Assembly: GCA_001275005.1 (NCBI GenBank)
Contig: JWZX01003208.1
Location: forward strand, 1-62,309
Direction of reading: 5' to 3'
DNA from: Chrysochromulina tobinii
Lineage: Eukaryota
DNA: 62,309 nt
Below the pieces are notes generated by a model, which was given only the letters and a program-made list of their open reading frames with translations, ran no database searches and was not told the origin of the DNA. Position numbers and translations under genes: made by a program. Shown piece by piece: positions 13,236 through 61,500 of this stretch (its first letter is position 1; every line of letters begins with the position of its first letter).

Positions 13236-14567
13236 ATGAAGACAGCGCTGTGCACGATCGCCCTCATGAGCGCTGCTGTTAACGCGCTATCGCTCGGTGG
13301 TCAGCCGGCCGCGGAACAACATCTTGACAGCCGAGCCCGGCTAGCAGCCCTTTCGGGCGGACAAGTAATGGCGCCCAACAGTGCGCCTTTGGTGCCTCCG
13401 CTCAACGATCCTCCCCAACAGTTGAAGATGCTCGCCTCCGGGCTCGTCAAGGCCGTCACCGTCCCGCAAGCAAAAGTCATCGATGGCAAAGCCTTCCCTC
13501 TAACACTGTCACCCACGGGCACACAATTGGTCGACCGCGCAACCTTAATCCGCGAGAACCGCCAGGAACTTATCGATGTGCTCCGCGAGTACGGTGCCGT
13601 GCTCCTTCGCGGATGGGGAGCGTGCGCCCCGTCACACTTTGCTGAGATCTCTGCAGCGCTGCAGCTGCCCACGACTGAGATGTCATGCTCGGCCGGCCCG
13701 CGCTTTGAGGTCGCGAGCAACGTGTTCACAGCGAACGAGGCGCCACCAACCGAACGCATCCCGTTCCATCACGAGATGGCTCAGTGCAACGCGCCACCCG
13801 CAGTCATTATGTTCTTTTGCGAGCAATCTGCGCCAAGCGGTGGCGCGACACCAATCATCGAGTCGCACCTTGCGGCGGCGTACCTGCGCTCGCGCCACCC
13901 GGACGTGGCTGCGCGCCTCGAGCAGAAGGGCGTGCGCTACGTGCGCATCATGCCGCCCGTGACCGATACCTCCTCGGCGTTGGGTAAGTCGTGGCGAACT
14001 GCCCTACGCGTCGAGTCGCCGGAGGAAGCTGAGGCAGCGCTGCGTGCCATGGGGTCGACGTGGACGTGGCTCGCCGGCGGCATGCTTCGCACGGTGACCG
14101 AGAGCCAAAGGGCCCCTGCATGCACGCGCTCACCATGGCGCCCCTCCCTCTTCCCACAGGTGACCGAGAGCATGCCGGCTCTCCTCCGTGATGAACGCTC
14201 CGGTCGCGAGGTCTTCTTCACGGCCGCTGAGTCCACCTTCAACGGCGTCGCAGACGAGGCCGCCGACCGCATCGCCGTTGAGGGCTCCGAGGAGGGGACT
14301 GAATGCCGGACTGTAAGGCCGGAAAAGTCCATCATCTATGGCGATGGCTCACCGCTCGACAGTCCTACGAAGGCGGCGATGCTCGATGTGAGCGCGTTCA
14401 TGCTAAGGGCGCAGGTGGCCATTCCGTGGCAGCCGGGCGACGCCTTACTTCTCGACAACGCAAGGGTTCAGCACTCTCGAGAGTCGTTCAAGCCGCCGCG
14501 CCGCATCCTTGCCTCCCTTGTGGGGACTCTCTCGAAGTCCCACGGCACGCTCCGATGGGACGCTTAG
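13236..14567 (+). CDS. TauD/clavaminate synthase-like Fe(II)/2-oxoglutarate dioxygenase; intron 14094-14159
   Basis: GAVLLRG, IPFHHEM, GGATP, WQPGDALLLDN...HSR; signal peptide; in-frame 66-nt GT..CCCACAG intron. Confidence 0.9.
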   Translation: MKTALCTIALMSAAVNALSLGGQPAAEQHLDSRARLAALSGGQVMAPNSAPLVPPLNDPPQQLKMLASGLVKAVTVPQAKVIDGKAFPLTLSPTGTQLVDRATLIRENRQELIDVLREYGAVLLRGWGACAPSHFAEISAALQLPTTEMSCSAGPRFEVASNVFTANEAPPTERIPFHHEMAQCNAPPAVIMFFCEQSAPSGGATPIIESHLAAAYLRSRHPDVAARLEQKGVRYVRIMPPVTDTSSALGKSWRTALRVESPEEAEAALRAMGSTWTWLAGGMLRTVTESQRAPACTRSPWRPSLFPQVTESMPALLRDERSGREVFFTAAESTFNGVADEAADRIAVEGSEEGTECRTVRPEKSIIYGDGSPLDSPTKAAMLDVSAFMLRAQVAIPWQPGDALLLDNARVQHSRESFKPPRRILASLVGTLSKSHGTLRWDA

Positions 14568-15000
14568 TAACGACGCTTCCGGGCACACTCGTCCTTCATC
14601 GACAGTTGGACTTGCATGCATCTCAATTAAACAGGACGTTTGATACTTGTACTGTACCGACTACGGCAGACCGAGGCTAGAACCTGGTCGTTAAAGACAT
14701 GAAGACAACAACCGAATGATCGAAGGCGGACGTCGAACCCTCGACGTCGGAGCCGACGAGATGCCGACGACCCGGGGATAAGCGAGCAGGTGTGCGAGCC
14801 GGCTCGGCCTCCCGGCTCCGGTGCGCGCAGGGTTGACCGGGATCGTGGGGCGAAGCCGAGCGGACCTCTGCCTCACGCTTCATTGAGTAAGCGTTATGGT
14901 TCGTCACTTGAGTTGAGTTGACTTGTGCATGCTTCGGCATGCCTTGATCTACATGAATGAACAAAAGGAAAAAACGGCCTTGGAACCTCTATAGGAGCCG

Positions 15001-16262
15001 ATGCCGTCGGCCCACGAGAGCGCCGGGCGACGGCCACCAGCGACACGACTTGCGCTGCTCCTCCACCGCGTGCACTTCAAGGATTTCAAGTCCTTTGCGG
15101 GCCACGTGGTCGTCGGCCCCTTTGACGCTCGCACCACGACCATCGTCGGGCCCAACGGCTCGGGAAAGTCTTGCCTCGTTGAGGGCGTGTGCTTCGCGCT
15201 CGCCGTCGGCTCGCAGCAGCTCCGCGCGCCAGCTCTCGGCTCGCTGGTCAACCACGGCAGCACGACCGGGAACGCGGCCGTCGCCGTCACCTTTGCCGAG
15301 GCTGGTGGCCCACGCTGTCTCGTCGTGCAGCGGCGCATCGTGGGTGGCTGCCGCAGCGAGTGGTTGGTGCAGGAGTGCGTGTGCGGCAGTGGCGGTGGCG
15401 GCGGCGGCGGTGGCGGTACTCGTCGCATCGAGCTGCCGCGCCCGCCATGGGTGTGCAGCACCTGCGCGGCGACCTCGATGAAGCGCGACGAGCTGCGCCA
15501 CGCGCTGCGGCGGCTGCTCGCGCTCGACATCGACCAGCCCGAGCGCTTCGTGGTGCACCAGACGAGCGTGATGAGCGTGGCGTCCAAGAGCCCTTCGGAA
15601 CTCCTACAGTTCCTTGAGGGCGTCTTGGGGACCGCTGGGCTACGTGCAGGCGTCCTCGAGGAGGCCGCACGTTCGCTCGAGCTCAGCGAGGCCGTGAGCT
15701 CGCTCGAGGAGATCCTAACGGTCGCGCGCGCCGACAAGGCGATGCATGCCAAGAGCTTCGAGGCGTACCGTGCCCTCGAGGAGAGCCGTCGGGCGTTCGC
15801 GGCGCTCCAATTTCGTCACCTCAAGCGCGAGCTTGCCTTCCTGGCGTGCAGCCTCGTCAGCAGCGACGCGCGACGCAAGGCTGCGCGCTGCACGCTGCAG
15901 GAGCGCGAGGGCGTGCTCGTGAGCGCCCGTGAAGGCGCACAGGCCGTCGAGGGACGGCTCAAGGCGAGCGGCGCGGCCAAGACGCGCGCCCACCTTGCCT
16001 CGAGCGCTGCCGGCCGCATGCTTGCGAGGCTGAGGGAGGAGAGCACGCGCATGCAATTGCGTCGGAAGCAGGCCTTGGCGAGCGAATGCCGCACTGCCAA
16101 GGCCGCCGCGGCGGTGCGCATGCAGGTGCACGCGCTGGGCGAGGAGGAGCGCACCGCAGCCATCGAGGAGGCACAGGCGCTCGCTACGGCGCGGCGGTCT
16201 GGCGAGTCGCTCGCCTTGTCTGAGGCTGTGCTCGAGGCTCGCGTCGAGCGCATGAACGCCCA

Positions 16263-16304
<42 letters not shown>

Positions 16305-17880
16305 TCGCGCCGATGCGAACGCTGTGAACGCCGATGCGAACGCTGTGAACGCCGATGCGAACGCCGCTGACGCTGCGGACGCGACGGGCGGCGTGGGGCG
16401 TCCGGCTAGCGACAGGCCCCCCAAACGCCAACGGCATCAGTCCAGCGGGGGCGGGGGCGGCAGCACAGGCGGAGGCGGCGGTTTGGGAGGAGGCTCTGTC
16501 ACGGGCAGCACGGGCGGCAGAGGCGGCGGCAGGGCAGGTGGCCTAGGCGGCAGCGTGGGCGGCGGTGGCGTGCTCGACGAGGACAGCAAGCTCGAGGAGC
16601 ATTGCCTCACGATGGAATGCGAGCTGCGCGCCCTCGTGCACGCATCGGCATGCGCGAGCCACTCGGCACAAGCCAGCCGACGGGCAGCCGAGCGATCCCA
16701 ACGCGCCACCGCCGAGATGCACCGCCTCAGTGCTCTACGACAGGGCGCAGGCGAGACCACGACGGCGCTCGAGGCGGCGGTACGCGCCTCGCAGGCCGCC
16801 ATGCTGCAGGCCGAGAGGAGCGCAGCGCTCGCACGCAGCGCGGCAGAGGAGGCTGAGGAGCGACTTCGCGTCCATCGGAGCGGCCTGCGCTCGCTCGAAG
16901 GAGAGCTGAGGGAGCGGAGCGCGCAGCTCGCCAGCTGCGGCGCCCAAGCCTCCTCCGACCGCCGCGCCGGCGCCGTCCGCCAGCTTCGTGCCTCCCTCGG
17001 CGGCGGTGGCGGCTCGGCGGCGTCGCGTGTGCACGGCTTCCTCTGTGAACGCCTCCGCGTGGCGCCAGCCCACATACGGTGCGTGAACGCCGTGCTGGGC
17101 GGCGCGACCCGCTCGACCGTCCTCGTCGACGATAAGCCAACCGCGCTCGCCCTAATTCATTACTTCACAGAGCGCAAGGTGGGCACCGTCACGTGCCAAC
17201 TGCTCGATCAAGCGGACAAGGAGGCCGCCGCCGCCGCGCCGCCCGCCGCCTCCTCCGCGCTCGTGGCGGCAGCCGCGGCAGCCGCGTCAGCGGCGTCAGC
17301 GCCCTCCTCCGTCGCCTCGGGACGCGCAGCACGCGCCGTCCTGGGCACCGACGGCGCGGCGGCCGTGTGGCTATCGGACGTAATCGAGTGCGAGACTCGT
17401 TACCGGCCCGTCGTACAGCAACTCACGAAGGGATGGATCCTCGTCGCCGACGCACAGGCAGCCCTCGCCGTCCACGCTCGGCATTCACACCAGACCGACG
17501 ATCGGACCAATGGCGGGCGCGCCGACGGGGCTGGCGGCACCAATGGCGGGCGCGCCGACGGGGCTGGCGGCCGCAGCGGCGGCGGCGGACGTGCCGGCGG
17601 TAGCGTCGGCAGGGGCGGAGGACGTGGAGGCGGAGGCGAGGGAGGCGGAGGCAGCGGCGCTGGCCTTGGCGGCAGCGGCGGCTCTCGCGGCCGCAGCACC
17701 ATCGGTGGGGGCGGTCGAGGGGCTGGTGCCTCCTCGCTCAACATCGTCACGTTACAAGGAGAGCTCTTTCGAGCCAGTGGCGAAGTGCAGCAGGCGCGGG
17801 CGCCATCGGCCAATGACGCGTACGCCATCGGCGCCACCCTCGCAACCCTGACAAGCGGCGGCGGGTACGACGGCGGCATG

Positions 17881-17928
<48 letters not shown>

Positions 17929-19843: not shown

Positions 19844-20187
19844 GGGGCGCCCATCACGGCGCCATGCCGGAGAGGAGCACGAGGTCTGGAGGAGCACCCG
19901 GTTTGGGGCGCTGGGCTTGACTTGACTTGACGTGACTCGCGGCGCACCCAGCCCCAAGCGGCGCACTTGTCCGACCACAAGCGACAAGAAGGTACTAGGG
20001 CTCTGCCACTGAGCGGATGTGAGGTGTGGCGGGCTGGCGGTGGATAGGGAACAGACTCTCGCGTCAGGTGAGCGATGGGTAGACAGCGGCCCGTTGGCCG
20101 GTGCGACGTTTCAAAAACATAACAAACTTCTCGCGACCGCCGACGGCTCGAGCACGCCGCGCTCGACCTCGTCTGGATACGCCCATA

Positions 20188-22649
20188 ATGGCGGAGCCGT
20201 GTCCCATTGGGACCCTGTGCCCACGGCGTGCATCTGCTACACTGATGCCTAATCGTGTCTTTGAAAGCCGTCGTGCTGCCAGGCGAGCGCTGCAGCGCAA
20301 AGCAGCGCTGCAGAGCGGTGCAGCGCCCAATTACACTCCCAGGACCGGTCTGCATCTGGACCCGCATGCGCTGGCGCGTCAGCAGTTGGAGGCGCACGTG
20401 GAATCCACGGCAGCCGCCGCCGTGAGCAGCTTGAGGGCGGCACTCGCGCAAGGGACTGCAAGGCATGCTGCTGCCTCCCAGCCTCCCGATGGGCTGCGCG
20501 AGGCTCTCAGCCAAGACCCTGCGGTGGACGTGGACGAGGCCACGGCGGTGTGGGCGACCGTCTGGCGGCAGGAGGCGCGCCTGAGCGCGGGCGGGCTGAC
20601 TCGACAGGCCAAGCGAGGATGGACTCCGGACGGGCGGTTCCCGAGCGCCTCAGACACCGGCTTTGCGACGCTCTGTGAGCGCTTCGGCCTCGAGGCGCAG
20701 GCGCGGCGGCAGAAGGCGTGGGTGGCCGGCACGGCCCGCCCACGGCGAGTGCTGGCGCTGGCGAATCCGACGGCCCATGAGGGGCTCGCGTGGTGGGTCG
20801 CTCGGGTGGCGGCGGGCATGCTCTGGGTGGCCGGCCGTGACAATCACACCGCCCTCACGATCGGGTACTCGGCGCACGACGTCGAGGATGTACTCAACGG
20901 AGCGATCAGGCCGCGCGGACTCGGCGGCGACCTCGCCAGGGCCATGCGACCTCCCGAGGCGTCATCGGCCTCCCTTGACTGGACGCTCGAGGGCGGCGGC
21001 GCGGCGCTGCTCGCCGGCTGCCACGCGCGCACACGAACGGAGACATGCACCCTGCTACGCGATCGGGTGGACGGCGCCGAGAATCTCGAGCTATCTCGGG
21101 AGCAAGCTCGGCACGGAGGCATCAACATGCTGCTCGCCCGCAACCTGTTCAACATCGGCAGGTGCAGCCGCGAAGGGGTCCGCTTCCTCCGCGCCGCATA
21201 CGGCGACCGTTGGGACCAGTCCCGCGCCGTCCTGAGCGCTCGCGCCAACGCGTCCTCGCCGCCTCCTTCGCTCGAGAAGCGCTTGCGCTCGTCGTTTGCG
21301 CTCGCGGCGGCTTGCTCTCTCCAAGCGAGCCTCGGGCCCGCCCCGTCACTGCACCTCTACGTGGCGAACAATCTCGAGCAATCTCGCGGGGGCTCCCACT
21401 CGGCCCCCCTCAGCACTGCCGTCCACCCTTCCTATGGAGCGATTCGAACGGCCCTGCGCGATGCCGCGACGCTCTCGATTGGCATCTACGTGCGCACGCT
21501 CGCGTCCGAGATCCCCGGAGGCTCAGACTCGGAGGCTCGTCGCCGCTTGGGCTTCAGGCACTGGCCCGCGGCGGAACGCTCCGATGACCTTCGGATGGCC
21601 TCTAGACCTCGGATTGTCTGCCTCATCAGTCCGATGACCTTCCGATGACCTTCGGATGACCTCTGATTGTCTGCCTCATCAGTCCGATGACCTTCGGATG
21701 GCCTCTGATGACCTCTGATTGTCTGCCTCATCAGTCCGATGACCTTCGGATGGCCTCTGATGACCTCTGATTGTCTGCCTCATCAGTCCGATGACCTTCA
21801 GATGGCCTATTTGTCGGATGGCCTCTGTTGACCTCTGATTGTCTGCCTCATCAGGCACTGGCCCTCGGCGGAACGCTCCCATTACCTTGGGATTGCGGCG
21901 TGCGCTCTCGCTCTTGAGACGAGGTGGGCTGCAGGCCTCGAGCGCGGATGGCGGCTGATTGCGCCTGATTGCGCCTGATTGCGCCTTGAGCTCATCAGCC
22001 CGGATCTCCCGCTGAGTGATCGATCGTGATGAACAGTCATTGACAGTGAGTGCGCCTCAATTGCGCCTGATTGCGGAGCAGGTGGGCGCCGGGGTTCGAG
22101 AACGTCGCGTGGTTCGTCGCGTCCGATTCTCCGAGCATCGTGAAGCAGCTCGTGATGGACTTTGACGAAACCCTCGGTGTGAACGGAACGCGCCCCCTCA
22201 CCGGTCGGCGCGCCGTGCTGCACACAGGCGCGGGGGGGCTCCACACACGTTTCGATTTAGATTGGGCGGACCCTACCTGGACGGCGCTCCGCACGGCGCG
22301 CAGCACGCCTGCGGCGGCCGGTGCGCGCCCGGCGACGGCTGGCAGTGTCAACGGCAGCGAGGTGCACGCTCTGCGAACTCGGGCACTCGTCGAAGGGTCG
22401 GCCGATTGGCTGCTCCTCTCCGAGGTGGACACGGCGGTCATCGGGACGATCCAGGACGGGAGTGGCGGGTTCACCTTTGGCACGACGGCGCTGCTGCGCG
22501 GCCTGCGCCTCCGAGGAGTTCGCGCCGCACCCTCATGGAACGACCTCGTGAACGCGGCCAATGCGAGGGATGCGCAGGCCATTGCGCAGCGTTGTGTTCG
22601 GAATGAAGAGGCTCGGATCGTGCCAGCGACGAAGTGTCGCGCTCGCTGA
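20188..22649 (+). CDS. Putative fucosyltransferase-like (GT-B) protein; introns 21558-21854 (GC-AG) and 21924-22081
   Basis: Splicing joins the ORFs in frame via a 69-nt exon; IGIYVR, WFVASDS, DWLLLS, FTFG resemble alpha-1,2/1,6-fucosyltransferase motifs I-III. Confidence 0.55.
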
Positions 22650-32822: not shown

Positions 32823-34767
32823 ATGGGCGTCTTGCCGTCGCCCGCCGGCCATCAGGCGGTCGGTGGCGGGAAGGACATCGCCTTCTTCGCGGGCGTCATC
32901 CTGCTCATCAACAACATCACAGGGCCGGGCGTACCTTCCTTGCCGAATCTGTTTGTCGAGGCTGGTTGGCTGCCGCCGACGGCATGCATCATCTGCATGT
33001 GGGTGGTGACGACCCTGAGCGCGTCCATATTTGCCGAAGCGATGGATCGCATCCCCGGCAATGAGGGGTTCAAGGGCCGCGTCGAATTCGTCTCCGTCGT
33101 CGACCATTATTTCGGACGGAGGATGTACGTTGCCAGTCAGATCGGCCTCAACGGCGCGCTCATGTCTCTCAACATCATTTCGGTAATCCTGTCAGCGCAG
33201 GTGATGGACGTGCTGATCTCGGCCCTGTTTGGTAAATCATGCGGCCTCAACCTCACGCCATTTGCCCTGTACAGCAATGCCACGTCCAGCGGCTCTCCCA
33301 TCCCCGGCTCGGATCGTGTCTTCTCATGCATCGACTCGGCTGACCTGAGCCACGGCAACGGCTGGGGCTGTCACATTGTGCTCTCGCTCGGGTACGTGCT
33401 CACCGCGGCGATGGCGATCCCTTGCGGCGCGTGGAACCTCGACGACAACATGATCATCCAAAAGGGCGCCTTTGGCCTCACCGCGTGCTGCTGGCTCATC
33501 TGGATCTTGGCCGCCCTCAGCATGGCCTCGGGTGGTGGCGGTGCTGGTGGCGCTGATGCTGGTGGTGGTGCTGCTGGTGGTGGTGCTGCTGCTGGTGACG
33601 TGGCGGCCTCCGCTGAGCTCGGCCTGCACGCCCTGGTCCGCTCCACCTCCTCGCGGCTGCCCGCGATCAACAACAACCCGCAGCTCGGCTCGGTAGCGGG
33701 CGTGCTCGGTGGCATCCTCTTCAACTTCGGGTTCGTCACCACAGTCCCCTCGTGGCTCGAGATGGCATGCAAGTGCTCACCACGGCGCCATCCCCCCCCT
33801 TTCCCACAGGTTCGTCACCACGGTCCCCTCGTGGCTCAATGAGAAGCTACCGGGCGTGCCCATCAATCGGGCACTCTGGCTCGCGACCACGTTCAGCGCG
33901 CTGCTCTTCGTGGCCATCGGCTTCACGGCCGCTCTGGTCTTCTCCGATGTGCTGCAAGGGCCGGTCACAGCGACGTGCGCGCGCCAGCTCGAGGACCCCA
34001 CCTTTGTCTGCGCCAACGACCTGCTGCAGTTGCTCTCGCAGCCGGCGACCGCGCCGTGGCAGTCGAGCCGGGCGGCAACGACCCTGCTGCAGGCCTCCGT
34101 CTATTGCTTCCCAATCTTCTCGATCGTCTCGTCGATCCCCGTCTTCTCGATCATCATCAAGTATAACCTCATCGAGAATGGCTTCTCGCGCGGCTTCGGC
34201 TTCGCGTGGGGCGTCATCTTCCCGTGGCTCGTCGGCTTCCCTCTGCTCTACATGCCCGACGTCCTCGGGCGCATCATCAACATTACCAGTCTCTTCTTTG
34301 TGTCCTTCTCCAGCTTTGTACTGCCACTCGCCCTCTACGTTGTCCTCCAGCGCAAGGCCGGCCACGTCCGCCTGCAGGCCCAGCCGGGCCTCGGCACCAC
34401 CCTCCTCGGCGGCACACACACGACGAGCACTGCCGAGCACTGCGCGCACACTGCCCCCTCCGCTGTGGGTGTGAATGTGAATGTGGGTGTGAATGTGAAT
34501 GTGACCCTCGCAATGGATGGTCGCGATGCAGGCTCCACCCCGGCGGCGGCGTCGGAGGACGAGGGAGGCTTCATGGCACTCGAGCAGCAAGGGCGCCACC
34601 ATGTGCTGCCACGCTCGTGGACGTGCTGCACGCCGCCCGTCCGCTCCGCGCTCGCGGTGGCCATCGCCATCCTCGTCACCGTGGGCTCGATGACTGCTCT
34701 CTACCTGACGATCACGCAGGGGACGTACGACGTCGATGCGAGCATTTGTGCGACGGTGGGCAACTGA
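32823..34767 (+). CDS. Amino acid transporter (Aa_trans/AAAP family); intron 33731-33809
   Basis: LLINNITGPGVPSLP...AGW; many TM segments; FNFG|FVTTVPSWLNEK after splicing. Confidence 0.85.
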
Positions 34768-34866: not shown

Positions 34867-37800
34867 ATGCCAATGATCGCTGGCCGCGCGGGCGGCGCGT
34901 CGCAGATCATGGCCGCGGTGCGCCGGAGGAGAAAAAAGTCGCCGCCTATCGCGGGCGAGAAGGAGGGCGCCACTCTCGGCCTGAAGTGGAAGGACGTGGG
35001 TGCCAAGCGGCCCACCGAGGGCAAGGAGCTGCAGAATGACGGCCTCTCAAAGGCGCTGCTGCGGCAGAATATGCGCGGCGTTCTGCACTACGTGTTCAGC
35101 GTCGAAGAATTCAAGGAGTTCCACGTTCGCGGCCTCCAACTGAACAGCTTCGTGCGCGCGGGCCCGAGTTACTACGTGCCCGACGAGACGCCCGAGCCCG
35201 AGGAGCTGAAGCCGTGGTTCGTGCGGTGGACGAACAACGTGTTCAACGTTTTGAATTCGCTCTCGCTGCAGGCGTGCCTGTACCTGGTCTTCGTGATCGT
35301 CTTTCAGAACCTCGCGGGCACAATGCGCCGCAGGGAGGAGTACTACATGACGATGCACGTGATGAACAAGTTCGTGACCACGCCATTCGACAGCCAGCAC
35401 AACACGTTCGAGACGATCCGACGCGCTTCGGACATTTATGAGTGGGGCAACCAGGTGCTCTGGCCGGGCTTCTTCGGCGACGCTGGCCCGTGCAACCCCT
35501 TCGTGGGTCTGCCCAACACGCTCCAGAATAAAGGATGCAACGACGACGCGTGGCCCGACGGCGACGGTCCACACCATCTGGTGGGTGCGTCACCGCTCGG
35601 GCTTGACGAGCTGGTGCGTAGGATGGACATGCTCGACTGGACGGAAGGCATCCTGATCAAGCAGGGCCGCGCGGCGCCGCAGAACTGCGCCGGACTGCAC
35701 CAGATCGGGCAGTGCTACCCGGAGCTCGAGAGAGGCATCTACACCTCGTCGACGCAGACGTACGGGTACGTTATGAGCCCGCCCGACGAGACCCTGATTG
35801 CGCCCGACGAGACCCTGATTGCGCCCGACGAGACCCTGATTACACCGGACGAGACCCTGATTGCGCCCGAGAGCTGGTTGTGAGTGCCACACCTGATGGC
35901 CTCCGATGGCCTCCCTCATCAGCTGGTTGTGAGTGCCACCTGATGGCCTCTGATGGCCTGCCTCATCAGGTACAACATCAGCCACCCCGACGAGGAGCCC
36001 GAGATACGATGGAGATACTTCTCAGCTCGGAATCTCGGCGGCAATCCCGGTGGTCAAACCTCGGCGGCGATCCCGTCGATGCGCCAGTACGATACGGACG
36101 GTTTCATTGCGGTCGTCATCCCCTTCTTCTCGGAGATCTATCTCGAGGAGCAGCACGATCTCGTCGATTGGGTCGTCGACTACCGTCTCCACTACGTCAA
36201 CGCGACCAACGGCAAGACGCCACGATACTATTGCGTGCGGCTCTCGCACAACGGGCGCGACATGCATCAGGTGCGTGCGAGACGATTGCGTGGCCATGAA
36301 TGCATATGACAATGACTCATGCATGCTATGCTATGCCTGCATGCATGCAGGTTTGCGACCCAACGACCAATCGGCGCGACGGCTCGGGCAAGATGACCGG
36401 CGTGGTGCGCGCTGCGGTGGAGAACATGTGGAATGACCTCAAGCGTGGCCACTATCTCGATTCGAGATCGCGCGTGCTCACGATCACGCTACAGTACGCC
36501 TTTCTCCTTGATTGCTTCTTGATTGCCTCTTGATTACATCTGGATTACAGTACGCCTTTCCCCTTGATTGCCTCTTGATTGCCTCTTGATTGCCTCTGGA
36601 TTACTTCTGGATTCCCTCTTGAGTGCCGCTGAGGAGCGCTGCTTGCGTCCTTCATCAGGCTCAACTCGAATCACGTGGGCGTGCGATCTCGCTTCACCCT
36701 GATGCTCGAGCTCACCGCCCTCGGAGCGATCTTCCCATCTTACGATGTCGAGACGCGCATCCTGGACGAGGCGGCCCTCGACGACATGCTGCTGTATGCG
36801 CAGATCTCGATGGTGATGGTCGCTTTCTTCGCCATGCTCGAGCTGATCGAGCTCATCCGCCAAGGGCCGATCGACTACGTGCAGAACTTTTGGCACCTGA
36901 TGGACTGGGGAAACTACATCATCTTCCTGCAGGTGTACTTCCAAGTTGTACAGGTACGTGCGGCTCTCGAGCACTCAGACTACCCTCTGATACCCCTCTG
37001 ACACCCCTCTGACACCCCCTGATAACCCTCTGATGGCCCTCTGACACCCCTCTGACACCCCTCTGATGCCCCTCTGATGCCCCTCTGATGCCCCTCTGAT
37101 GCCCCTCTGATGCCCCTCTTGTCGGCGTACCTGATTGCCTCCCTCATCAGGTACGCCAGACCATCGAGAATCCGGACTGCAGCTCGTTCCTGTGCGCCAA
37201 CATCGGCTACTTCGATGATTGGAAGGCGATGGGCGAGTACCGCATCTGCAAGCAGTACCTCGCCCTCTGCGTGTGCCTACAGCTCTTCAAGATCACCAAG
37301 TTCACCAGCCAGCTCGTGCCAAAGATGGGCCTCATGTCGAATGTGCTCCGGCACGCGGCCATCGACATCTTCTTCTTCGCGATCGTCTTCTTCAACTCCC
37401 TCCTCGCCTTCTCGACCATGCTCTACGTGCAGGTGCGCTGATGACCACTGATTACCATTGATGACCCCTGATGACCATGCTCTACGTGCAGATGGGAGTG
37501 CCTCTCTCTGAGTGCCTCTCGGCGTGCTTCTTTCGGAGTGCCTTTCGGATGGCCTTTCGGATGGCCTCTCGGATGGCATGCTGATTGCATCTGCCTGCTT
37601 TGTGTGTTCTGCGTGCAGCTTGGGCCGGTGATGGAAGACTTTTACGACCAAGGGCCCGCGATCGTGTCGCTCTTCCGAGCTCTCTTCGGAGATTTCGATC
37701 TGGATGAGGTGATGAACCAGTCCTCAGGCTACATGAACGCGCTCCTCTTCCTCGTCTACCTCTTTGTCGCGATCTTCATCATGCTCTCTCTCTTCCTCGC

Positions 37801-39060
37801 CATCCTGGCGGAGGCGCAGGCAGCCGTTCGAGAGCGCGAAGCAATCAAGAAGGTCGACGATCCCAACTTCAACGAGTTTGGCGTGATGCACACGTGCTGG
37901 GACTTCCTCGGCTTCGGCTATCGCAGGGTACGCCAGGCGCAGATTCGGGTCTGATTCGGGTCTGATTCGGGTCTGATTCGGGTCTGATTCGGGTCTGATT
38001 TGGTTCTGATTGGGGTCTGATTGCCCTCCTCATCAGGTGCGCCAGACCTTGTATCCCGAGGAGGAGGCCCCCGCATGCAAGTGCTCACCACGACGCCATC
38101 GCTTCTCTCCCACAGGTTCGTCAGACATTGTATCCCGAGGAGGAGGCTCCCGTCGCCGAAGCAGTGCCGGGGCCCGAGCCGCCTCCGACCGTGGACGCAA
38201 TGGTCAAAGATCTCCGGGGCGAGGTCAAGACCATCAGCGAGATTGTGAACACGCTCTGCAGAGAGGTCGTCTTGCTGCGCTCGAATGGCCTCGTCGGCAC
38301 TCCGGAAGGGTGGCTCGCGCCCGACGGCACGCTACGTGGCACCGGCGAGCATGGCGCCCGCGACGACGCCGATGGCGGCGTCGTGAGTGTGGAAGACGCC
38401 CGGCGCATGCGCCTCGGGATACACGCCGAGATACACGCCGAGATGGTGAGTGTGGAAGACGCCCGTCGCATGCGCCTGGTGGTCGAGGGGCTCGATGCGA
38501 AGCTCACCAAGAAGCTCGAACAGATCGACGAGCGTCTCGCGAAGCGTGAGAAGGTGGCCGCGATCGAGCGCAAGGGCCACTTACCGGCCGGTAAGTCGAG
38601 GCCGTCGCCCTTGGTGAACGAGCGCACTGCCGCGGGCGCGGCCAGTGACTTTCAGCCCATCGCCGCACAGAGTTGGTTGGCGGGTACTACGGCCGCAGGC
38701 GGTGGCGTGGCCGCAGGCGGTGGCGGCGGCGACCGCGGCGCTGGCGGCGGCGGCGGCAGAGGGTGTGGGGAGAGCCCCGGTGCGGCGCTGGCGGCGGCGG
38801 CAGCGGCACTGGCGGTGGCGGCCCCGCCGCTGCATGCACGCCCACGCTCGCCTGCCGACCCGCTGCATGCATGCTCTCGCTCGCCTGCCACTCGGCCGCC
38901 CGTCCACTTCTCACCTGAACTCCTCACTTCCACACCAAGCAGCCTGCCGAAGCTGCTTGGGCCACCGACACGCGGACAACTCTTGGGTGCCCCCGACGAG
39001 CACCTAGATCACGCGATGTCACAGTACAGTGGCAAGTCGATCGCCGGCTTGTCAGCGTAG
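34867..39060 (+). CDS. Polycystin (PKD2/TRPP)-like cation channel; introns 35766-35969, 36271-36350, 36494-36658, 36954-37150, 37433-37618, 37928-38115
   Basis: Large extracellular loop ending LKRGHYLDSRSR; WHLMDW; pore SLFRALFGDFD; S6 FIMLSLFLAIL; all six introns preserve the frame. Confidence 0.85.
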
Positions 39061-46194: not shown

Positions 46195-49100
46195 TCATTG
46201 TTGGATGAACTTGCGATGGCTATCGAAGGCGACGCGCTTGAAGAGCTCGATCGTGCCGGTCGCCTCAAGGATCGGGATGCCGTAGCCGGCGGCGGTGACC
46301 GTCCCGATGGAGTCGAAGGCCGTCACGATGCCGTCGATGAGCGGAAAGTGCCCGTTCGTCATCACGGGCGAGTGCAGCCCCTTCTTGCTCGCAGTGGCCA
46401 TCTTGGTCACGGCGGAGGGCATGGCCGCGCCGGTGGTCGATGAGAGCCACAAGGTGTCGCCCAGCTCAATCTCGCCCGCCGTCTTGAGGGTGGCGCAGCA
46501 GGACGGGCCAACCGGCACGTGGTGCTCCTCAGTGAGGGTTACATTGCGGCCGGCAGCCGTCGAGAGCACGAGGAACGTCGACACCGCGTCCTCGTCGGCG
46601 AGCGAGAGAGCGCTCACGGTATCGGTGGTCAGGACGCCCTCAGCCGTGGCCACGACGATCTCGTCGCCCACCTGCACAGCATCGAGCGAGCGCTTGGCGC
46701 CACTAGCCAGCACGACGGTGGCCGAGGAGGGGAAGCAGGGTAGCCCGTCGCTGTTCTCCTTTACCGACTCATAGGTGACGATGGATGCTGTGGACACGCT
46801 GCCTCCAGTGAGAACTACGATCTGGACGCCGGGCACGGAGGCGAAGGCAGCTTGCAAATTGCCTAGACTCAGGTCGGCAGTGTTCATGGCGGTCTGCGCG
46901 GTGGCTGCGGCCTCCTGGCTGCCAAAGCTTTGCGAGAAGCGGAGGGTCGATGTGGCCTGGGTTGATAGGCGCCGTCGATACGCGGCGCCGGTGGCATCAT
47001 CAACGATGGTCAGAGTCCGCGTGGGTGCGCCCGCACCGAGGGGGAATGCGCCGTTGAAGGCTGCGAGGAGGGCGGGCTTGCTGCTCGCCAGCGTGAGCGC
47101 TTGTGCCTGCACACTCGTGCTGACCTCAACGATGTACCGAACGACCTCGACTTGGCCTGCTCCGATGGTCGGCGGCCGCGCTGGCGGCGAGGGCGGCGGC
47201 GGCGAGGGCGAGGGCGGCGGCGGCGAGGGCGGCGGCGGTGAGGGTGAGGGCGGCGGCGGAGAGGGCGCCGGCGGTGGCGAGGGCGAGGGCGGGGGCGGCG
47301 AGGGCGCGGGGGGCGGCGAGGGCGCTGGGGGCGGCGAGGGCGAGGGCGGGGGCGGCGAGGGCGCGGGCGACAGTGTTGCACACGTCGTTCCGAATGCAGC
47401 GCCGCACGTACACACGCCGCCGTTGCATGTATCGAGGCCGTTACATGCGAGTCCGGGGCACTCGTGCGGTGAGCAAAGCAGGAACAGCGCCAGCTCGGGG
47501 CACTGGATGCTACCGGTAAAGCCGAGGGAGCTCGGTGGCGTGACGAAAGCCCCAGGGCTCGGGCAGGTGAGCCAATGCTCTACGCCACTGGCGGCGAGCA
47601 CCCTCAGCTGCAGTGCGCCTGCGGAGCAGCGGGTGACGTGGCAGGCGCTTCGGACGGGCTCGCTGGTGCGATAGTTGTTGATGACTTGCGAGAGCGAGCT
47701 ATTGACGCAGCGCCCGCCAGTGCCAAAGGTCTCTCCGCGAAAGTTCTGCGAGCTCGAGGGCGCATTCGGCGTCTCGTCACACTCGCCATTCGAATAGCTC
47801 CGAAAGATGGGGCAGTAGTCGGACACGGCTATCGAACCGCCTAGGCTCGGGTTGGCGCTGAAGTACTGATAACCCACGGGCAGCGCAGAATTGTACGTGA
47901 CGAGATTGCACTGGCCGCGTGCGGCGTGGTCGGCCGTGCACCTGTCATCAGAGGTTATCGGCGGTTATGAGCGGTCATGAGCGGTCATGAGCGGTGATCA
48001 GTGGTCATCAGTGGGGTCGGCCGCATGCACCCGTCTTGTTGAGCCACGTTGCAGAAGCCGTCCTGTGCTACGCCGCTGCTGTCGATGCACCGCTCCGTCG
48101 CCCACGCACAGCCCGCATTCCGGCCGTATACGAGTGGCTCCGCCATGCTCCAGTTGGCACGGTACCTGCGCGAGGGGAGGTAGCCATCAGAGGTAGCCAT
48201 CAGAGGTAGCCATCAGAGGTAGCCATCAGAGGTAGCCATCAGAGGTACTGTGGCTCTAAGGGGCAGCCTTCAGAGGCATCGAGCAGAGTCATCGGGGAGA
48301 GAGGCAATGAGAAGAGTCATTGGGGAGAGAGGTAATGAGAAGAGTCATAGGGGAGAGAGGCAATGAGAAGAGTCATAGGGGAGAGAGGCAATGAGAAGAG
48401 TCATCGGGGAGAGAGGTAATGAGATGAGTCTTCGGGGAGAGAGGTAATGAGACCCCTTCGGCGTGCGGGGGCGGTAATGAGGTAATGAAAGGTAATGAGA
48501 GGTAATGAGAGGTAATGAGAGGTAATGAGAGGTAATGAGAGGTAATGAGAGGTAATGAGAGGTAATGAGACCCCTTCGGCGTGCGGAGGCGGCGCGCACC
48601 AGCCGCTGTCCTCGAGGGCTGCGAGCGTGAGCGCCGAAATGAAAGAGTTATGCGACGCCGTCGACGCCATCATCTCTTGTGGGAAGAGCCGTTGCTCCCA
48701 GTGGGAACCGAAGCAGCTGCCGCTTGTGGTGGGCTGGTTCTCGAGCTCTGGGCCTTCGAGTGTGCTGCAGCCGAGGAGGTCGCGCGCAACCGCGACTACC
48801 TTGGGCGTGACCATGCGGTTCACGATCACGCCGCGCTCCTGCCTGACCAGAAGCGTGCTCGCGCTGGGCGCCCTCACAGTGCGGGTCACACCGTCGGTGC
48901 ACAGGGTTGGCGTGAGCGCAGGCAGACCGTCCGCCCCGCGCGGTGTGCGCGGGGTGCCATCCTGGTGGCGGAAGAGCGCCCAGGAATCCGTCGAAAAGCC
49001 GAGCGCGTGCAGGAGCTCGTGCACCTGATGAGGATGGTCATCAGAGGTCATCAGTTGGTCTTCAGAGGTCATCATCAGTTGGTCATCAGAGGTCATCAGA

Positions 49101-49847
49101 GGTCATCAGAGGCACAGGCTCGTGCACCGCAGTACTCAGTTGGTCTTCCCACGCGCTCGAACTCGACGAGAGCGCCACCGGACAGAAGTTTGCCTGACCC
49201 ATGATCGGTCGATCGTATTGATCGCGCACACACGTGGAGGCGTACGCGAGCGTGCCATCGCCGGCCGACGCCGGGCAGCTGCCCGTGGTCGCCGACGTGA
49301 CATACAAGACAAAGTCTGCGTTGCTCACGCCTGTGCCGTTGGCCGAAGTGGTGCAACTCGACGGATTGCACGTGCCGTCTGCGTTGCACGAACTGCAGGT
49401 CTGCAGACTGTTGAGCAGATAGTCGGCCACGGCCGCCGACGTCCCGTCCGGCATGTAGCCGCAACGCACTGGCTGGCCCACGCTCGCGCATGGCGAGCCA
49501 GCCACCTGCCATGTCGAACCGCAGTTGCGATTGACACGCAGCGGTCCCTGCACACGCACGACTGACAACGCTCGAGAGAGCACCGAGACGGCCGCGGGCA
49601 CAAGCGTGTTCATCAAGAAAGATTGCCTGGCGCTATCGAGCGCCGCTAGGTTCTGCGTGATGACGTGAATGCGGATGGGCTCGTAGCTGTTGCTCGTCGT
49701 CCGCCGGCCGTGGCCTGTGGGCTCGTAGTACTCCTGCGCTGCAAAGTTGTATGGAGGTGCTGGAATCTCGTCGTGTGCGCAGTGATGATTGTGATGGCGG
49801 CCGCATGCCACGCTCAGCATCAGGAATATTAAGAAGACTGCTTCCAT
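46195..49847 (-). CDS. Secreted leishmanolysin (peptidase M8) + Cys-rich + Pro-rich stalk + C-terminal Hog-type Hint domain; introns 49025-49127, 48166-48599, 47942-48030
   Basis: Signal peptide; HCAHD; RDQYDRP; HELLHALGF; SHWEQR; LEDSGWY; DYCP; (SPPPP)n; Hint CFP...VQVGD...LTEEH...GLHSP...DG. Confidence 0.9.
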
Positions 49848-49885: not shown

Positions 49886-50700
49886 GAGACGAGTTCATCT
49901 CTCTCTCGAGATTGGCCGTGACTCACAAACGGTAAAAAGACACCGGGGGGAGCCGGGACAAACGGTACCGTGAAGTCTCACAAACGGTGCCGTGAAGTCT
50001 CACAAACGGTACCGTGAAGTCTCACGAGCGGTACCGTGAAGTCTCACAAACGGTACCGCCGCAAAGTCTCACAAACGGTACCGCGAAGTCTCACAAACGG
50101 TACCGTGAAGTCTCACAAACGGTACCGTGAAGTCTCACAAACGGTACCGTGAAGTCTCACAAGCGGTACCGTGAAGTCTCACAAACGGTACCGTGAAGTC
50201 TCAAAGCGGTACCGTGAAGTCTCACAAACGGTACCGTGAAGTCTCACAAACAATAACCGCGATACGGTAGTGGTCGAACTCATGTCTCACACACGGTAGT
50301 GGCCAAGTCTCACAAACGGTAGTGGTCGAACTCATGTCTCACAAACGGTAGTGGCCAAGTCTCACAAACGGTAGTGGTCGAACTCAAGTCTCACAAACGG
50401 TAGTGGCGAAAAGAACTCATGAAGTCTCACAAATGGTAGTGGTCGAACTAAAATCTCACAAATGGTCGTGGCCAAAAGAACCCAAGTCTCACAAACGTTC
50501 GCCGAAGTCTCACAAACTGAACCGGGAACTGGAGGACCGTGAAGTCTCACAAACGGTACCGCGCGTCTTTAGAAACTGCTTACCCGAAGTCTCACAAACG
50601 GTAGTGGTCGAACTGCGAAGTCTCACAAACGGTAGTGTTCGAACTCAAGTCTCACAAACGGAAGTGACGAACTGCGAAGTCTCACAAACGAACTCGTCTC
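49886..50700. mobile_element. Putative non-autonomous DNA transposon (MITE-like): 11-bp terminal inverted repeats around a satellite
   Basis: GAGACGAGTTC (49886-49896) and GAACTCGTCTC (50690-50700); no clean target-site duplication. Confidence 0.55.
49920..50690. repeat. Minisatellite, core GTCTCACAAACGGTA, about 29 copies (22-nt period in the first half)
   Basis: gtctcacaaacggtaccgtgaa units grading into ...gtggtcgaactc variants. Confidence 0.95.
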
Positions 50701-55421: not shown

Positions 55422-56688
55422 CTACTCGGCGCTCAGCACGCGCCACGACGAGGACGCGGGTGGCATGGCCTGCGCCACGCGCTCCGCCGTCTTGGGCGCC
55501 GCGCCGTGCAAGATGAACAAGAAGAGATCCCACAGGCTCTCCGCGTCCGCCGAGGGCGCCGTCCCGAGCTGCGCGCCGCCGCCACCGCCGGTGGCGGCCG
55601 CGGTGGCGGCGGCAGCTCGACTGCTCGCGCGCACCTGATGAGGGAAGCAATAGTTGGTCATCATTGGTCATCAGTGGTCATCAGCACACCGCGCTCGACT
55701 GCTCGCGCGCACCTGATGAGGGACGCCATCAGAGGCAATCAGAGCTCTTCGGCCATGGCACTCAACGGCTCGAGCGCACCTCGGCAAATTCCTCCGAGGC
55801 TGCTAGGATGATGGCTCCGGTGGCGGTCACGGCAAAGGTGGAGACGAGGTAGACCGCGGCGATGTCGAGCTTGAGTAGCCCCTCGGGCAAGGTGCTCAGG
55901 CCCGTCAGGTAGCGCGAGGGGAAGGACCACACGCCCTGCTGCTGCCCCACGCAGTCGATGCACACCGTCCACATCCCCGGCGGCAGCCAACTCGACACAA
56001 ATAACCGCCAGTGCGAGCGGAGATAGCGAGCTCCCAGGTTCCAAACGACCGCGAACACGGGCGCGAAAAAGGTGGCGATGAGCCCGAGGCACTTGTGATG
56101 GTCCTCGTCGCCCGCAAGCGCCGCCAACCCCGCGAGCGTCATCGCCGCCAGCACGGCATTGCCCGCGGCGCGCACCGAATCGGCCATTGGCGCTGGCGTG
56201 CCGTCGGGCGCGGCGGTGAGAGTCCACTCAGACATCTTGAGTGTCCAGAGCGCGGCCTTGATGACGTGGTGGAAGAGCCACAGGATCTCCTCGAGCGGCA
56301 GCAGCGTCGCCGCACCCAGCCCGGTCACCTTCGCGGGATTGAAGGTCCAGATGCCAATCTGTGCCCCGACCGAATCCCAGACAAAGGCCTGACCGACGGC
56401 GATGGTGAGGATGAAGGCGAGGTAGGCGAAAGAGGCGGTGGTTTTCAGCGGGTCGCGCTCGTCGTTGAGCATCGTTGGCTTTCCGGCCGTGAGCAGCCAG
56501 AGCGTGGGCAAGAGCAGGAAGCCGTGCAGGTCCCAGTAGGAGAGCTCGAGGCCTCCACTCGCCACGAAGCCGGGGCCGTCCCAGCCGGACGAGCCGAATG
56601 CGACGCAGGTGGGTGGCAGCGTGCGCGGGGCCATGGACAAGCCGGCCGTGGCCATCGGCGCGAGCGAAGGAAATCTCAAGATGCGCAT
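55422..56688 (-). CDS. CrtYcd/CarR-type membrane lycopene cyclase domain protein; intron 55635-55779
   Basis: Two hydrophobic repeats: WDSVGAQIGIWTF...LPLEE and IDCVGQQQGVWSF. Confidence 0.7.
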
Positions 56689-56941
56689 CGCGCCGCCGTC
56701 GTCGAGCAAGAAAGATTCATCGCTTGCATGAGGAGAATCTCTCTAAAGAGCGACCTCTAATGAAGCGCGCATGTCTGCGGTGTTAAGCGACGAAAAGAAG
56801 GGTCGGCCTGCGGGTTGCTCGCGTGAGGCTGCAAGCGGCACCCCTGCGTTCCGCCTCTGTGAATTCACACTATTTCGGCCTTCGCCGCAAGCTCTTCGCC
56901 GCTGTCGCCGCCGCCGCCGCTGCCACTTTTTGAGCGCAGCC

Positions 56942-58189: not shown

Positions 58190-58565
58190 GCGCGCCGAGA
58201 TGAGCGCGCCGTCGAGAGGTCCGACCGTCTGTGAACCTTGGCTGTGAACCTTGCCTGTCGACCTTTTGGCCGGCCACGGAGAGTGGAGAGGGACGCGACG
58301 TCGTGCGCATCCGTTTCGGCTCACGGCTCACGCGACAAGCGCAGAGCGGGCACAAGAGCCAGGGTTGGCCGTTGACAGTTCCGGAGCGGACGTACCGTCT
58401 TCTGCCCCAGGTAAAGTGCACCGACGGCTGTTGCGCCATAAAGAAGCGAAAACCAAGGCGCCCTCACCGCACGGAGTTACACACGAAAATCCGTCTAACG
58501 ATTAAGATAACATGTGACCGTGCGGTTCAGTCCTCGCTCGCGCGACAGCCGCGCACTGACGGTCA

Positions 58566-61500
58566 TCACTTCGTGAATTCGTAATCGTCGGGATTCGTCA
58601 TCTTCGTGATTGCTGATTCCATCGTCAGCGCGAAGGATCCGTGCCCGCCCACCCCCTCCTCCGCGTCGTCGCACGGCTCTACGTGGGCGAGTCGTGGCTC
58701 ACGCTTGCGAAGATGAGGGACGTCATCAGTCGTCATCAGTCGTCATCAGTCGTCATCAGGCTCTACGTGGGCGACGTGGCTCTCGCTTGCGAAGATGAGG
58801 GACGCATCGCGCTTGAGGACGAGCCCATCGCGCCAGCGCATGCCGCGTGCGTCCTCGCGGGGGCGCAGTCCCTGGCCGCGATTGAGCACGCACAAGACGG
58901 CGCGCATACTCGCGCCCCCGCCCGCCGCCCCCGCCCCCGCCCCCGCCCCCGACTTACCGGTACTGACCGCGGCGGCGCTGGCGTTGGCGTTGGCGGCGTT
59001 GGCGTTGGCGGTGGCGGCGGCGGCGGCGGCATCGGCGCTGCCACTCTGAGGGTCGAGATAGATTGCATGCGGCGGGCCTGCTAACGGTCGGCCGAAGAAC
59101 TTGGAGTTCGGGTCCGCTTCGTATTTGAACAAGCAGAGCTCGGCGCCCGCGACGGCGGCGAGCTGTCGGCGCTCGGCTTCCCCAAGGTTGGAGAGGCCAC
59201 TGCCCACGCGCCCGCGGCGAGGGCGGTACACGCCGCATTTGGCAACTGAGGCATCGGTCCGGAGGCCGTCAGGCGCGGTGGCTGGCGAGGTGAAGCCGTC
59301 GAACGCGCCCCCGCCGCCGTCGTTCACACCTCCGCCGCCGTCGTTCGCGCCTATGTTGCTGTCGTTCGCGTCGCCGCCGCCGTCCGCGCCCCCGCCGCCG
59401 TCGTCCACGCTGTCGTTCACACCTCCGCCGCCGTCCACACCTCCGCCGCCGTCGTCCACGCTGTCGGCCGTTTCGGAATCGCCTTTCATCCGGCGAGCCT
59501 GCGCTTCACACTCGAGTGAGTGTGAACATGCGACCTGCACCCGCCGAAGCATGCCTCGCAGTGCAGCGGCGGCCGCCTCGGGCGAAGCCCCGTCGGCAGG
59601 GGCAGCACGGGCGTAGAGAAAGGCCGCCACAAGCTGCAGCGTCTCGGCGCGCCGCTGCGCGAGATCGAGCGGAGATCGAGCGGAGATCGAGCGGAGATCG
59701 AGCGGAGATCGAGCGGACGCCAGGTCAGAGGGCAATCAAGGACGTCATCGGGGGTCATCAAGCACGCAATCAGGGTGGACGATGAGGTTGGCAATCAGGG
59801 GGGGGGGGTACGCAGGTAGAAGAAGAAGATGATGATGATGGCAGCCATCACGAGGGCACTCGAGCGCACCTGCACGTCAAGCAAGTCCTCATACCGAATC
59901 GCGAGCAGCGGCGTGCGAGTGCCCAGCCAATAGCGATGGAACGCCGCCCACACGGCCGCCTCCCGATGGACGTGCTCACGCCACTCGTCACGAAGACGGG
60001 TGTACTCGGTCGCACGCACGGAGCGCGTGTGGCTCTTGGTCAGAACCATATTCCAATACGAGTCGATCGCATCCACCGGGCTACGCACGAGGAGCACCGC
60101 CGCATGCACTCGCACCTGGGGGGGGCGAGGGGCGAGGGGAACGAGGGGCGAGGGGGGGCGCGCGCCGTGGTGACCGATGCATGCCGAAGGGTGGCGGAGA
60201 CTCGCGCGCCGTGGTGAGCAGATGCATGCCGAAGGGTGGCGGAGACGCGCGCGCCGTGGTAAGCACTCGCATGCGCGCGTCGTCGCGGCACACGCACCTC
60301 GGCCGCGCCGCGCCTCTCGGGCCAATGGCTCTTGACGAGCCAGACGCGACCATCCGAGATGCCCTCCGCCGCGAGCCCAAAGGCCGCCAAGTCGCGCGAG
60401 AGGGGCGCGTCTGCGTGCCCATCAGAGCCAGTGAGGATACCGGTACAGGACTCAAGGAGAGAGCGAAGTAACGAATTCCCAGAGCGGGGGTAGGAGACGA
60501 GGGCTACCTGCCGTGAGATGGGCGCCATGGTGAGCACATGCATGCAGAGCGGGGGTAGGAGACGAGGGCTACCTGCCGTGAGCGCTCGTGCGGCGCGAGA
60601 AAGCGTGCTGGCGCCAATCTCGCTGCAGCTCCCGTCACATCATCATCGTCATCATCCTCGCCGCCTTCCTGCGTGCCCAACAACAACAGCGACGACGCCG
60701 CCGCCCGGCCGCCGACTCCGTCGTCCAGCGCAGTCGGCGGATCGGCCGCAAGCCGCATCACTGCAAGCTCGTGCGCCGTCAGCCGTGCCTCCAGCTCGGC
60801 GTCCGACCCCCAATCTCCCCAATCGAGCTCCAAGGCTGCCGCCGCCACCGCTGCCGCCTCCATTTCCATGCCTGCATAGGGACGTCCAGCAGCAGCAGCG
60901 GCGGCGGCGGCGGCGGCGGCGGCGTCCTTGGCACGTCTCCATTCGTCGAGTCGAGCGCGTCGCTCGTCTCGCTCGGCTTCGGCACGGCGCGCCGCCTCGG
61001 TCTGTGCACTGGCGTCCTGAGCGCGCTTGCTCGCACGCCAGGCGGGCAGTTGAGATCTCCTCTCCGATATCCAACGCTGGAGTGCAGCAGTCGCAGCGAG
61101 GTGGCGCTCGAGTGCCGCCTCGGCCTCGCGACGTGCGCGGGCCTCGGCGAGTGCGGCCGCGTGCTCTGCGTCCTCGGCCGCTGCCTCGAGGCGCTCCTGC
61201 CGCCTGATGAGGGAGGCAATCCGACGGAGTTAATGAGGGAGGCAATCGGACGGAGTTGATGAGGGAGGCAATCGGACGGAGTCCATCGAGGCACACATGG
61301 GGTCACCAGAGGCACACATGGGGTCATCAGAGGCAGCTCTCACCGCTCAAGCCAGCGCTCGCGCCGCTGTCGCGTCTGCTCACGCGTCGCCTCCTCCGCC
61401 GCGGCCGCGAGGGCTGCGGCGTCCGCGGCTGCCTGCTGCTGTGTGCGCCGCTCCTCCTCTTCGAGGGCGCGCCGCTGCGCCATCGCGGCCTCGGCTGCCT

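Follow-up and report, generated by a model that had tools for sequence, protein, structure and literature searches.

How does one short sequence come to lie in four unrelated genes, each time within an apparent intron that seems to open with a copy of the exon after it? The question is raised by a 62-kb stretch of Chrysochromulina tobinii DNA (62,309 nt of contig JWZX01003208.1, GC content 64.4%), the window of what follows, in which a sequence-only reading had picked out a common core in genes for a TauD protein, a transporter, a PKD protein and a sulfotransferase, and had attributed it to an introner-like family placed by staggered breaks or repair-templated insertion. The analysis reported here finds that the inserts carrying this core are real, recent, abundant and introner-like, and that the system works like break-repair intron gain in which the donor can be traced.

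Layout of the core inserts

When up to three mismatches were allowed, the core matched the window six times, against a mean of 0.00 in 100 shuffles, and a seventh, degenerate copy lies beside two of these in the sulfotransferase gene (Table 1). The four gene assignments hold: TauD and PKD_channel match Pfam directly, and homologues of the transporter and the sulfotransferase bear the corresponding Pfam labels. Among the matches listed, the closest named eukaryotic homologue of the TauD protein is from Emiliania huxleyi (42-44%). The GC content of the window is close to the 63.4% given for C. tobinii and, like the style of its introns, suggests a freshwater haptophyte at or near that species. 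Beyond the window, a scan of metagenome contigs found the core in at least 138 loci, and the family statistics are drawn from the window plus 139 short loci (138 of these metagenome loci and one viral locus). The metagenome runs that contain the window sequence are labelled as mixed-culture metagenome. This collection yielded 248 cores, of which 233 were distinct after duplicate removal and 213 had 100 nt of flank.

The proposed family of inserts with duplications of variable length is borne out by these copies. An order of next-exon copy starting at GT or GC, core, pyrimidine tail, AG and exon is present in 101/213 copies and in 9/4204 permuted pairs, which served as the chance baseline at a score cut-off of at least 12, so that the duplications stand about 200-fold above chance; a flanking duplication at any position is found in 151/213 copies against 21/632. 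A clean subset was defined as 88 of the 107 anchored copies by leaving out tandem arrays, units shorter than 55 or longer than 105 nt, and copies with long upstream matches or long tails. In this subset the duplication is 11-50 nt long (median 25.5) and not of fixed length, 36 of the 88 duplications are perfect, the whole unit measures 57-102 nt (median 77), and lengths modulo 3 (31/31/26) show no excess of multiples of three. Duplication and linker length trade off against each other (rho -0.66), and the CTCAC motif of the core sits 22-36 nt upstream of the AG.

Neither end of the insert proper is fixed. The core starts a median of 35 nt from the GT, and the linker before it ranges from 0 to 40 nt. 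The ending CCCACAG, noted earlier at all three plus-strand sites of the window and confirmed there, closes 77/107 anchored copies, and 33 non-anchored copies have a duplication without a tail of this type, so the 3' junction thus varies too. At the predicted donor, clean copies have GT in 85/88, a purine at +3 in 79/88 and G at +5 in 61/88; copies whose length is a multiple of three have donors similar to those of the rest (18/31 and 34/57), and this comparison therefore offers no test of selection. GT or GC directly follows 126 of 138 acceptor-type copies.

With CTGAT motifs as a proxy for the gene strand, the suggested check of orientation gave 115 sense and 6 antisense copies among the 121 that could be called (231 in total), and in 52 of 54 loci with several cores all of these lie on one strand. 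Truncation of the core is rare (about 5 truncations, counted by eye, versus 48 near-complete non-exact copies). Mismatches between the intronic and the exonic copy follow the codon period (40/74 pairs, p<0.0002; 23/44 at third positions), and those in PKD (38037-38151) and at locus L125 are synonymous throughout (4/4 and 6/6, respectively), possibly reflecting exchange with diverged alleles. If the window is typical, its five sites per 62 kb extrapolate to about 4,700 (1,500-11,000) per 59 Mb.

Features that might mark a mobile element were also sought. Folding revealed no conserved structure (z-scores -1.8 to +1.3 in 6 folds), the copies have no terminal inverted repeats or shared ends, and Rfam returned 0 matches at E<=1 for the 10 of 139 loci tested. 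The core pattern had 0 matches in genome contigs and 1 in viral contigs, and a 20-mer of the CTGAT acceptor matched 0 viral contigs. The longer autonomous element or small RNA that the sequence-only reading suggested looking for was thus not found in the Rfam comparison of 10 loci or in viral contigs, the whole genome not having been searched. The one viral match (L140, 4300-4554) places the core in the algal intron-like end of a phage-like contig that is probably a chimera. At L105, two tail-less cores of opposite orientation, separated by about 120 nt, each have a duplication of their own.

Several ordinary introns end in GCATGCAG|GT (window 36271-36350; L012, L042, L061), and the core resembles a GCATGCAG acceptor plus 15 nt of exon in which the G of the AG has been replaced. 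Position 8 of the core is A in 148, T in 54, C in 26 and G in 5 of the 233 distinct copies. By its resemblance to such ends, the core may be a captured intron-exon junction.

Recency, splicing and sources of the cassette

Relatives that share 87-99% protein identity lack the insert at three window sites. The inserts are therefore recent, and gain in this lineage is the simplest reading; some of the empty alleles could have arisen by clean loss through the repeats. The presence/absence polymorphism that had been proposed as a check is therefore found at three window sites. Counts of close relatives refer to the matches listed, with at most 15 members per cluster.

At TauD, the 12-nt duplication described earlier is present, and the segment is not removed as an intron. 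The insert is in frame, free of stops and adds 22 amino acids, and it is retained in mRNA rather than spliced, being bridged with at least 31 nt on each side in one of four RNA runs; the neighbouring 14887-16200 is uncovered. RNA contigs lose rare forms, and a minor spliced form is possible. Among 28 listed relatives in two clusters, the insert is present in 18 (in two of them doubled) and missing from 8 that are 95-97% identical, and the other 2 give no coverage here; exactly the 22 insert residues are missing from all 7 distant orthologues aligned. The doubled inserts (P0145, P0146) are arranged in tandem, the outcome expected of unequal crossing-over at the flanking repeats. In eight insert-free relatives (P0122, P0127-P0134), the reading runs a few codons further on into another intervening sequence, which is CTGAT-like and represents an independent nearby gain.

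The transporter insert matches the earlier description, with a 28-nt copy containing one mismatch, and removal of the predicted intron restores the frame. RNA contigs in three runs do not bridge it and are uninformative either way. Of 15 close proteins listed, 11 read through at 94-97% identity (one on contigs of at most 30 kb), 1 has the insert and 3 do not cover it.

At the first sulfotransferase site, removal of the predicted intron likewise restores the frame, and the reported duplication stands at 37-38 nt across AG|GT, made up of 28 nt before the core and 10 nt further upstream, with both splice sites inside the duplicated segment. Among 24 close proteins listed, 17 are empty and 7 have the insert; one empty relative (P0219), identical at 98/99 positions upstream, still reads into the cores of the second site. 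There, the three tandem cores had been correctly recognised, the third being degenerate, and the next-exon copy could not be confirmed, as the flanking match is only 11/12 including the AG and alone is not above chance. Repeat number at this second site varies among relatives. In a comparison with the P0220 cluster, 16 listed relatives have a different sequence at the same intron position, and therefore either parallel gain or turnover of content has taken place.

PKD provides the observation of splicing. An RNA contig (X13, record 2; one of three runs) joins 37926 to 38115, and the spliced reading frame runs for 936 codons without a stop. The family acceptor is thus in use, and the donor lies at 37928, upstream of a CTGAT-type segment; the duplication (36-37 nt, with 4 mismatches, all synonymous) was rightly identified, and it does not open the intron, which is 37928-38115. 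This intron consists of two abutting intron-like units with no exon between them, the first of which opens with a 9-nt match to the second unit (8/9) and to the exon (7/9).

The sources of the inserted cassette can be sought among other copies. In the set of long contigs, sharing of the linker end (at least 4 bases before the core) is found in 12/78 same-contig pairs against 169/4656 and near-identical tails in 9/78 against 80/4656, and the other contig set agrees on kinship within contigs (6/17 against 86/1624). Identity over the whole core is no higher on the same contig (0.156 versus 0.214), and in the long-contig set non-A bases at core position 8 are not shared significantly more often (8/78 versus 269/4656, p=0.14). 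L107 contains part of the duplicated exon of L108, about 1.5 kb away, through a 5-nt overlap; in L088, copy 300 has a mismatch to its own exon, inside the duplication, that equals the base of copy 440, and L089, on the same contig as the L088 copies, has the same tail. Judged by these shared bases, L107/L108 and L088 copies 300/440 appear to be donor-daughter pairs in which flank of the donor was carried along.

In addition, the 5' junctions show microhomology. Where host sequence abuts the core, its ends are more like donor flanks than are positions taken at random from exons (n=19, p=0.0003). Similarity to other loci extends 3.55 nt into the host against 2.07 expected (40/88 copies, p=0.002); microhomology at the 3' junction is inseparable from selection of the donor site. 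Repair-templated insertion, as originally proposed, thus gains from the junctions and from the local donor-daughter pairs, and needs amending in that some copies are retained (TauD) or were added to existing introns (PKD).

The duplication is not specific to the core family, since CTGAT-repeat introns that lack the core and end in CATCAG also open with copies of the next exon (Table 1). There is also a mirror class, in which a GT cassette is followed by a copy of the end of the previous exon (10 CTGAT-rich cases of 30 candidates). One process acting on several cassettes fits these introns better than one element with fixed ends.

Table 1. Inserts, duplications and related introns in the window (positions in nt; cores on the minus strand are written in reading direction)
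Feature	Position	Strand	Details
TauD insert	14094..14159	+	66 nt: exon copy 14094-14105 (12 nt), 12-nt linker, core 14118-14142, tail ending CCCACAG
TauD exonic second copy	14160..14171	+	by sequence comparison
Amino-acid transporter insert, predicted intron	33731..33809	+	79 nt: exon copy 33731-33758 (28 nt, 1 mismatch), 6-nt linker, core 33765-33789, tail
Transporter duplication, second copy	33810..33837	+	by sequence comparison
CTGAT-repeat intron without core, RNA-supported	35766..35969	+	in PKD; opens with decayed next-exon copy, 19/25
CTGAT-repeat intron without core, RNA-supported	36954..37150	+	in PKD; opens with decayed next-exon copy, 19/30
Mirror-class unit	37433..37491	+	GT-CTGAT cassette, then 19-nt copy of previous exon end; starts RNA-supported intron 37433-37618
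PKD intron, RNA-supported	37928..38115	+	188 nt: CTGAT-type part 37928-38036 (ends CATCAG) plus core unit
PKD core unit	38037..38115	+	36-nt exon copy, core 38073-38097 and a tail in which CCCACAG serves as acceptor
PKD duplication, second copy	38116..38151	+	4 synonymous differences
Sulfotransferase site 2, predicted intron	60116..60297	-	182 nt; three tandem cores 60274-60250, 60229-60205, 60184-60161 (degenerate); period 45
Sulfotransferase site 1, predicted intron	60508..60572	-	65 nt; copies 60582-60546 and 60517-60481; core 60545-60521 and 3 nt form the insert proper
CTGAT-repeat predicted intron, GC donor	21558..21854	+	opens with next-exon copy
CTGAT-repeat predicted intron	55635..55712	-	opens with 20-nt next-exon copy; 11 nt upstream match
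CTGAT-repeat predicted intron, GC donor	58676..58759	+	opens with 15-nt next-exon copy

Arrays of 10-11-nt CTGAT units are many and mostly intronic (for example 36983-37119, 37942-38022, 47944-48570 and 49036-49112), and at L031, L073 and L076 such arrays are joined directly to the core. Other repeats of the window include an AT-richer 22-nt tandem array (13 copies, with variants of 29-65 nt) that does not resemble those in introns (49958-50690), paralogous coding arrays of 30-nt units that encode 10-aa repeats (2377-2669 and 30687-30967), and a triple repeat (42 nt) close to a 3' gene end, covered by RNA contigs (12338-12462).

Competing accounts of how the inserts arise

The account we favour, with confidence about evenly divided, combines a local duplication with microhomology-joined copying of a cassette from another intron, through host repair or template switching on a DNA donor. 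A staggered break or a slipped DNA end at the host site would leave a host duplication of 11-50 nt, and an acceptor cassette (the core with its predicted branch point, the pyrimidine tail and the AG) would be captured between the two copies from another, often nearby, intron by microhomology. We infer that the template is DNA rather than RNA, and that host repair enzymes do the joining, the cassette having no transposase of its own; in an alternative geometry, a nascent strand would leave the host site, copy the donor and return upstream. The 5' splice site would then come from the first host copy and the 3' splice site from the cassette, such that splicing would restore the mRNA exactly. Selection would retain events with a GTR.G donor and adequate spacing, and in-frame failures would persist unspliced, as TauD shows. 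To judge from the two donor-daughter pairs, each new intron may become a donor, and recombination between its two host copies may double the unit, as seen in two proteins, or delete it cleanly. The inserts have the same geometry as a break whose complementary 3' overhangs measure 11-50 nt; tandem duplications are described as forming at such breaks in mammalian cells (PMC8355091).

A bolder version, which we hold only tentatively and consider less probable than its negation, is a transposase-free chain reaction in which a break or slip copies the cassette of a neighbouring intron, the duplication provides the other splice site, and the product serves as a new donor. If true, it would cover both the core family and the CTGAT-repeat introns, and hence a large share of the introns of this lineage; introns would be reversible through their flanking repeats, and would belong to a class of proliferation invisible to surveys of end-to-end homology.

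Several observations weigh against copying by host repair. Use of the duplicated GT as a donor is predicted from its sequence context and is unseen in RNA, where the TauD insert is retained (present in 4/4 runs, its splice joint in 0/4), the PKD donor lies upstream and the transporter insert is unbridged. The core is nearly always whole, pointing to a cis element that is recognised and hence to an enzyme dedicated to it; the GT or GC that follows nearly all acceptor-type copies demands heavy purging unless insertion is targeted; and the strong sense bias is what an RNA template would give. Some linkers are common to different contigs, and every copy was ascertained through the core.

The sense bias is one reason for considering retro-copying, which we regard as possible, if unlikely. 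Here a LINE/Penelope-type or host reverse transcriptase would be primed at a nick and would take pre-mRNA or excised-intron RNA, in many cases from the same gene, as its template, copying from the acceptor back through the core before a microhomology join and leaving a target duplication of variable length, as target-primed reverse transcription does. This would suit the kinship within genes and the combination of a tail that mostly ends in CCCACAG with a variable 5' end; non-LTR elements are described as typically leaving variable duplications, and short, 5'-truncated, intronic Penelope-like insertions are described in Chlamydomonas (PMC9977147). However, the inserts have no poly(A) or simple-repeat end and some 3' junctions fall inside the tail, the donor cassettes of the mirror class would require a second geometry, and the opposite-strand copies of L105 each have a duplication. 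Ten loci gave no Rfam match, and no reverse transcriptase partner turned up, the whole genome not having been searched for such genes.

The intactness of the core also speaks for a non-autonomous element that relies on a dedicated DNA enzyme acting in trans, such as a Replitron-type HUH transposase that recognises the core, an account to which we give a low probability. Replitron-1 is reported to move by orientation-specific copy-and-paste, with variable duplications and a fuzzy end derived from the parent flank, and C. tobinii is reported to have one Replitron locus (PMC10288648). The inserts nevertheless have no terminal direct repeat or fixed terminus, as both ends vary; the target begins with GT here rather than ending in RG; other cassettes bear the same signature; and the junctions show microhomology.

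It is very improbable that the inserts were built in two steps, a plain tandem duplication creating a weak intron into which gene conversion later pasted a strong acceptor cassette from other introns. Tandem duplication is described as an accepted route to introns (PMC3443670; PMC4974935), the doubled units and tandem cores show that local recombination is active, and the codon-periodic mismatches hint at allelic exchange; yet an allele with the duplication and no cassette was not seen at the three window sites, and more than a third of clean duplications (36/88) are perfect with the cassette in place. Finally, that the core is a mere extended branch-point consensus and the duplications chance, the two outcomes named beforehand as fatal to the sequence-only reading, is refuted and has next to no probability, even with CTCAC at its distance from the AG, given that 0 cores are expected by chance, the layout is in excess, alleles are empty, and the core is absent from 5 of 6 RNA-supported PKD introns.

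Relation to known systems and significance

Published introners are the nearest comparison. At least four introns sharing sequence, one introner criterion, are represented here by 233 distinct core copies, and recent gain at empty sites is seen at three window sites. Similarity near both intron boundaries, which the introner method requires (Gozashti 2022, PMC9860276), is not found, because the 5' 11-50 nt are a copy of host exon; the core system is thus introner-like, yet its locus-specific 5' halves place it outside the published introner definition. Like the introners of Symbiodinium, an example of those that take the 5' splice site from their target duplication, and those of a Chrysochromulina sp. 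metagenome-assembled genome (MAG), the core inserts are multi-copy and sense-oriented, with one splice site of their own and one from duplicated host sequence, such that splicing would restore the mRNA. Those introners are described as co-opting a splice site from duplications of 3-9 bp, 4 bp in the marine Chrysochromulina sp. MAG family (PMC9860276), whereas the core inserts have variable duplications of 11-50 nt, about 40% of the intron locus-specific, no inverted ends, variable ends on both sides, junction microhomology and local donors. In the supplement of the 2022 study, C. tobinii was found only in the genome list (PMC9860276), and that of the 2025 survey gives it 0 families (PMC12130899); no description of the core family was found in the literature sections searched, and a listing could still stand in a survey supplement.

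By the features compared, the inserts are not members of the introner, SINE or Replitron families. Their 11-50-nt duplications and lack of shared ends differ from the inverted repeats and fixed short duplications of miniature inverted-repeat DNA transposons (MITEs). With non-LTR and Penelope-like retroelements, as portrayed in PMC8557442 and PMC9977147, they have in common variable duplications, variable 5' ends and tandem partial copies. In contrast, they have no poly(A) or simple repeat at a fixed 3' end, since the tails are variable pyrimidine tracts and 33 copies with a duplication lack the tail; no ribozyme; and no head derived from tRNA, 7SL or 5S RNA (0 Rfam matches, 10/139 loci). With Replitron-1 and Replitron-N1 of Chlamydomonas, as presented in PMC10288648, they share copy-and-paste spread, orientation specificity, variable duplication and parent flank forming a fuzzy end, and differ in measuring 40-60 nt against 0.9-3.6 kb and in lacking the short direct repeats at both termini, the Replitron itself having a Rep gene. 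Replitron insertions are also described as under-represented in coding sequence and introns (PMC9977147).

Host-driven intron gain provides the closer parallel. New introns of Daphnia pulex, attributed to staggered double-strand breaks, are described with 4-12-bp repeats and filler of mostly unknown source (PMC4202315). As there, the introns here are new and polymorphic, with a direct repeat of the adjacent exon at the opposite intron end, secondary insertions and parallel gains at one position; the filler, unlike that of Daphnia, is a recognisable family with traceable donors. In introns of tandem genomic duplication, including that of potato RdRp (PMC3443670, PMC4974935), a duplicated exon likewise serves as the donor, and the acceptor signals in potato are reported to come from the parental intron. 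In the present family the acceptor cassette probably has its source at a different locus and is found again across the genome, and a foreign core lies between the copies at all five window sites, so that none consists solely of duplicated local sequence; 60572-60508 comes closest.

These inserts touch two long-open questions, the origin of new spliceosomal introns and the source of filler DNA in introns gained through break repair. The filler here has visible donors, the events are many and segregate among close relatives, and the organism is culturable, so the mechanism is testable. To judge from their layout, the inserts would be a candidate source of new introns that escapes published surveys by their very design, most of the inserts predicted to splice out cleanly, with one insert spliced in RNA (the PKD acceptor) and one retained (TauD). 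Their half-local construction explains the blind spot, as the 2022 method requires similarity at both intron ends. If the host is C. tobinii or a near relative, counts of intron gain centred on transposons miss a whole class.

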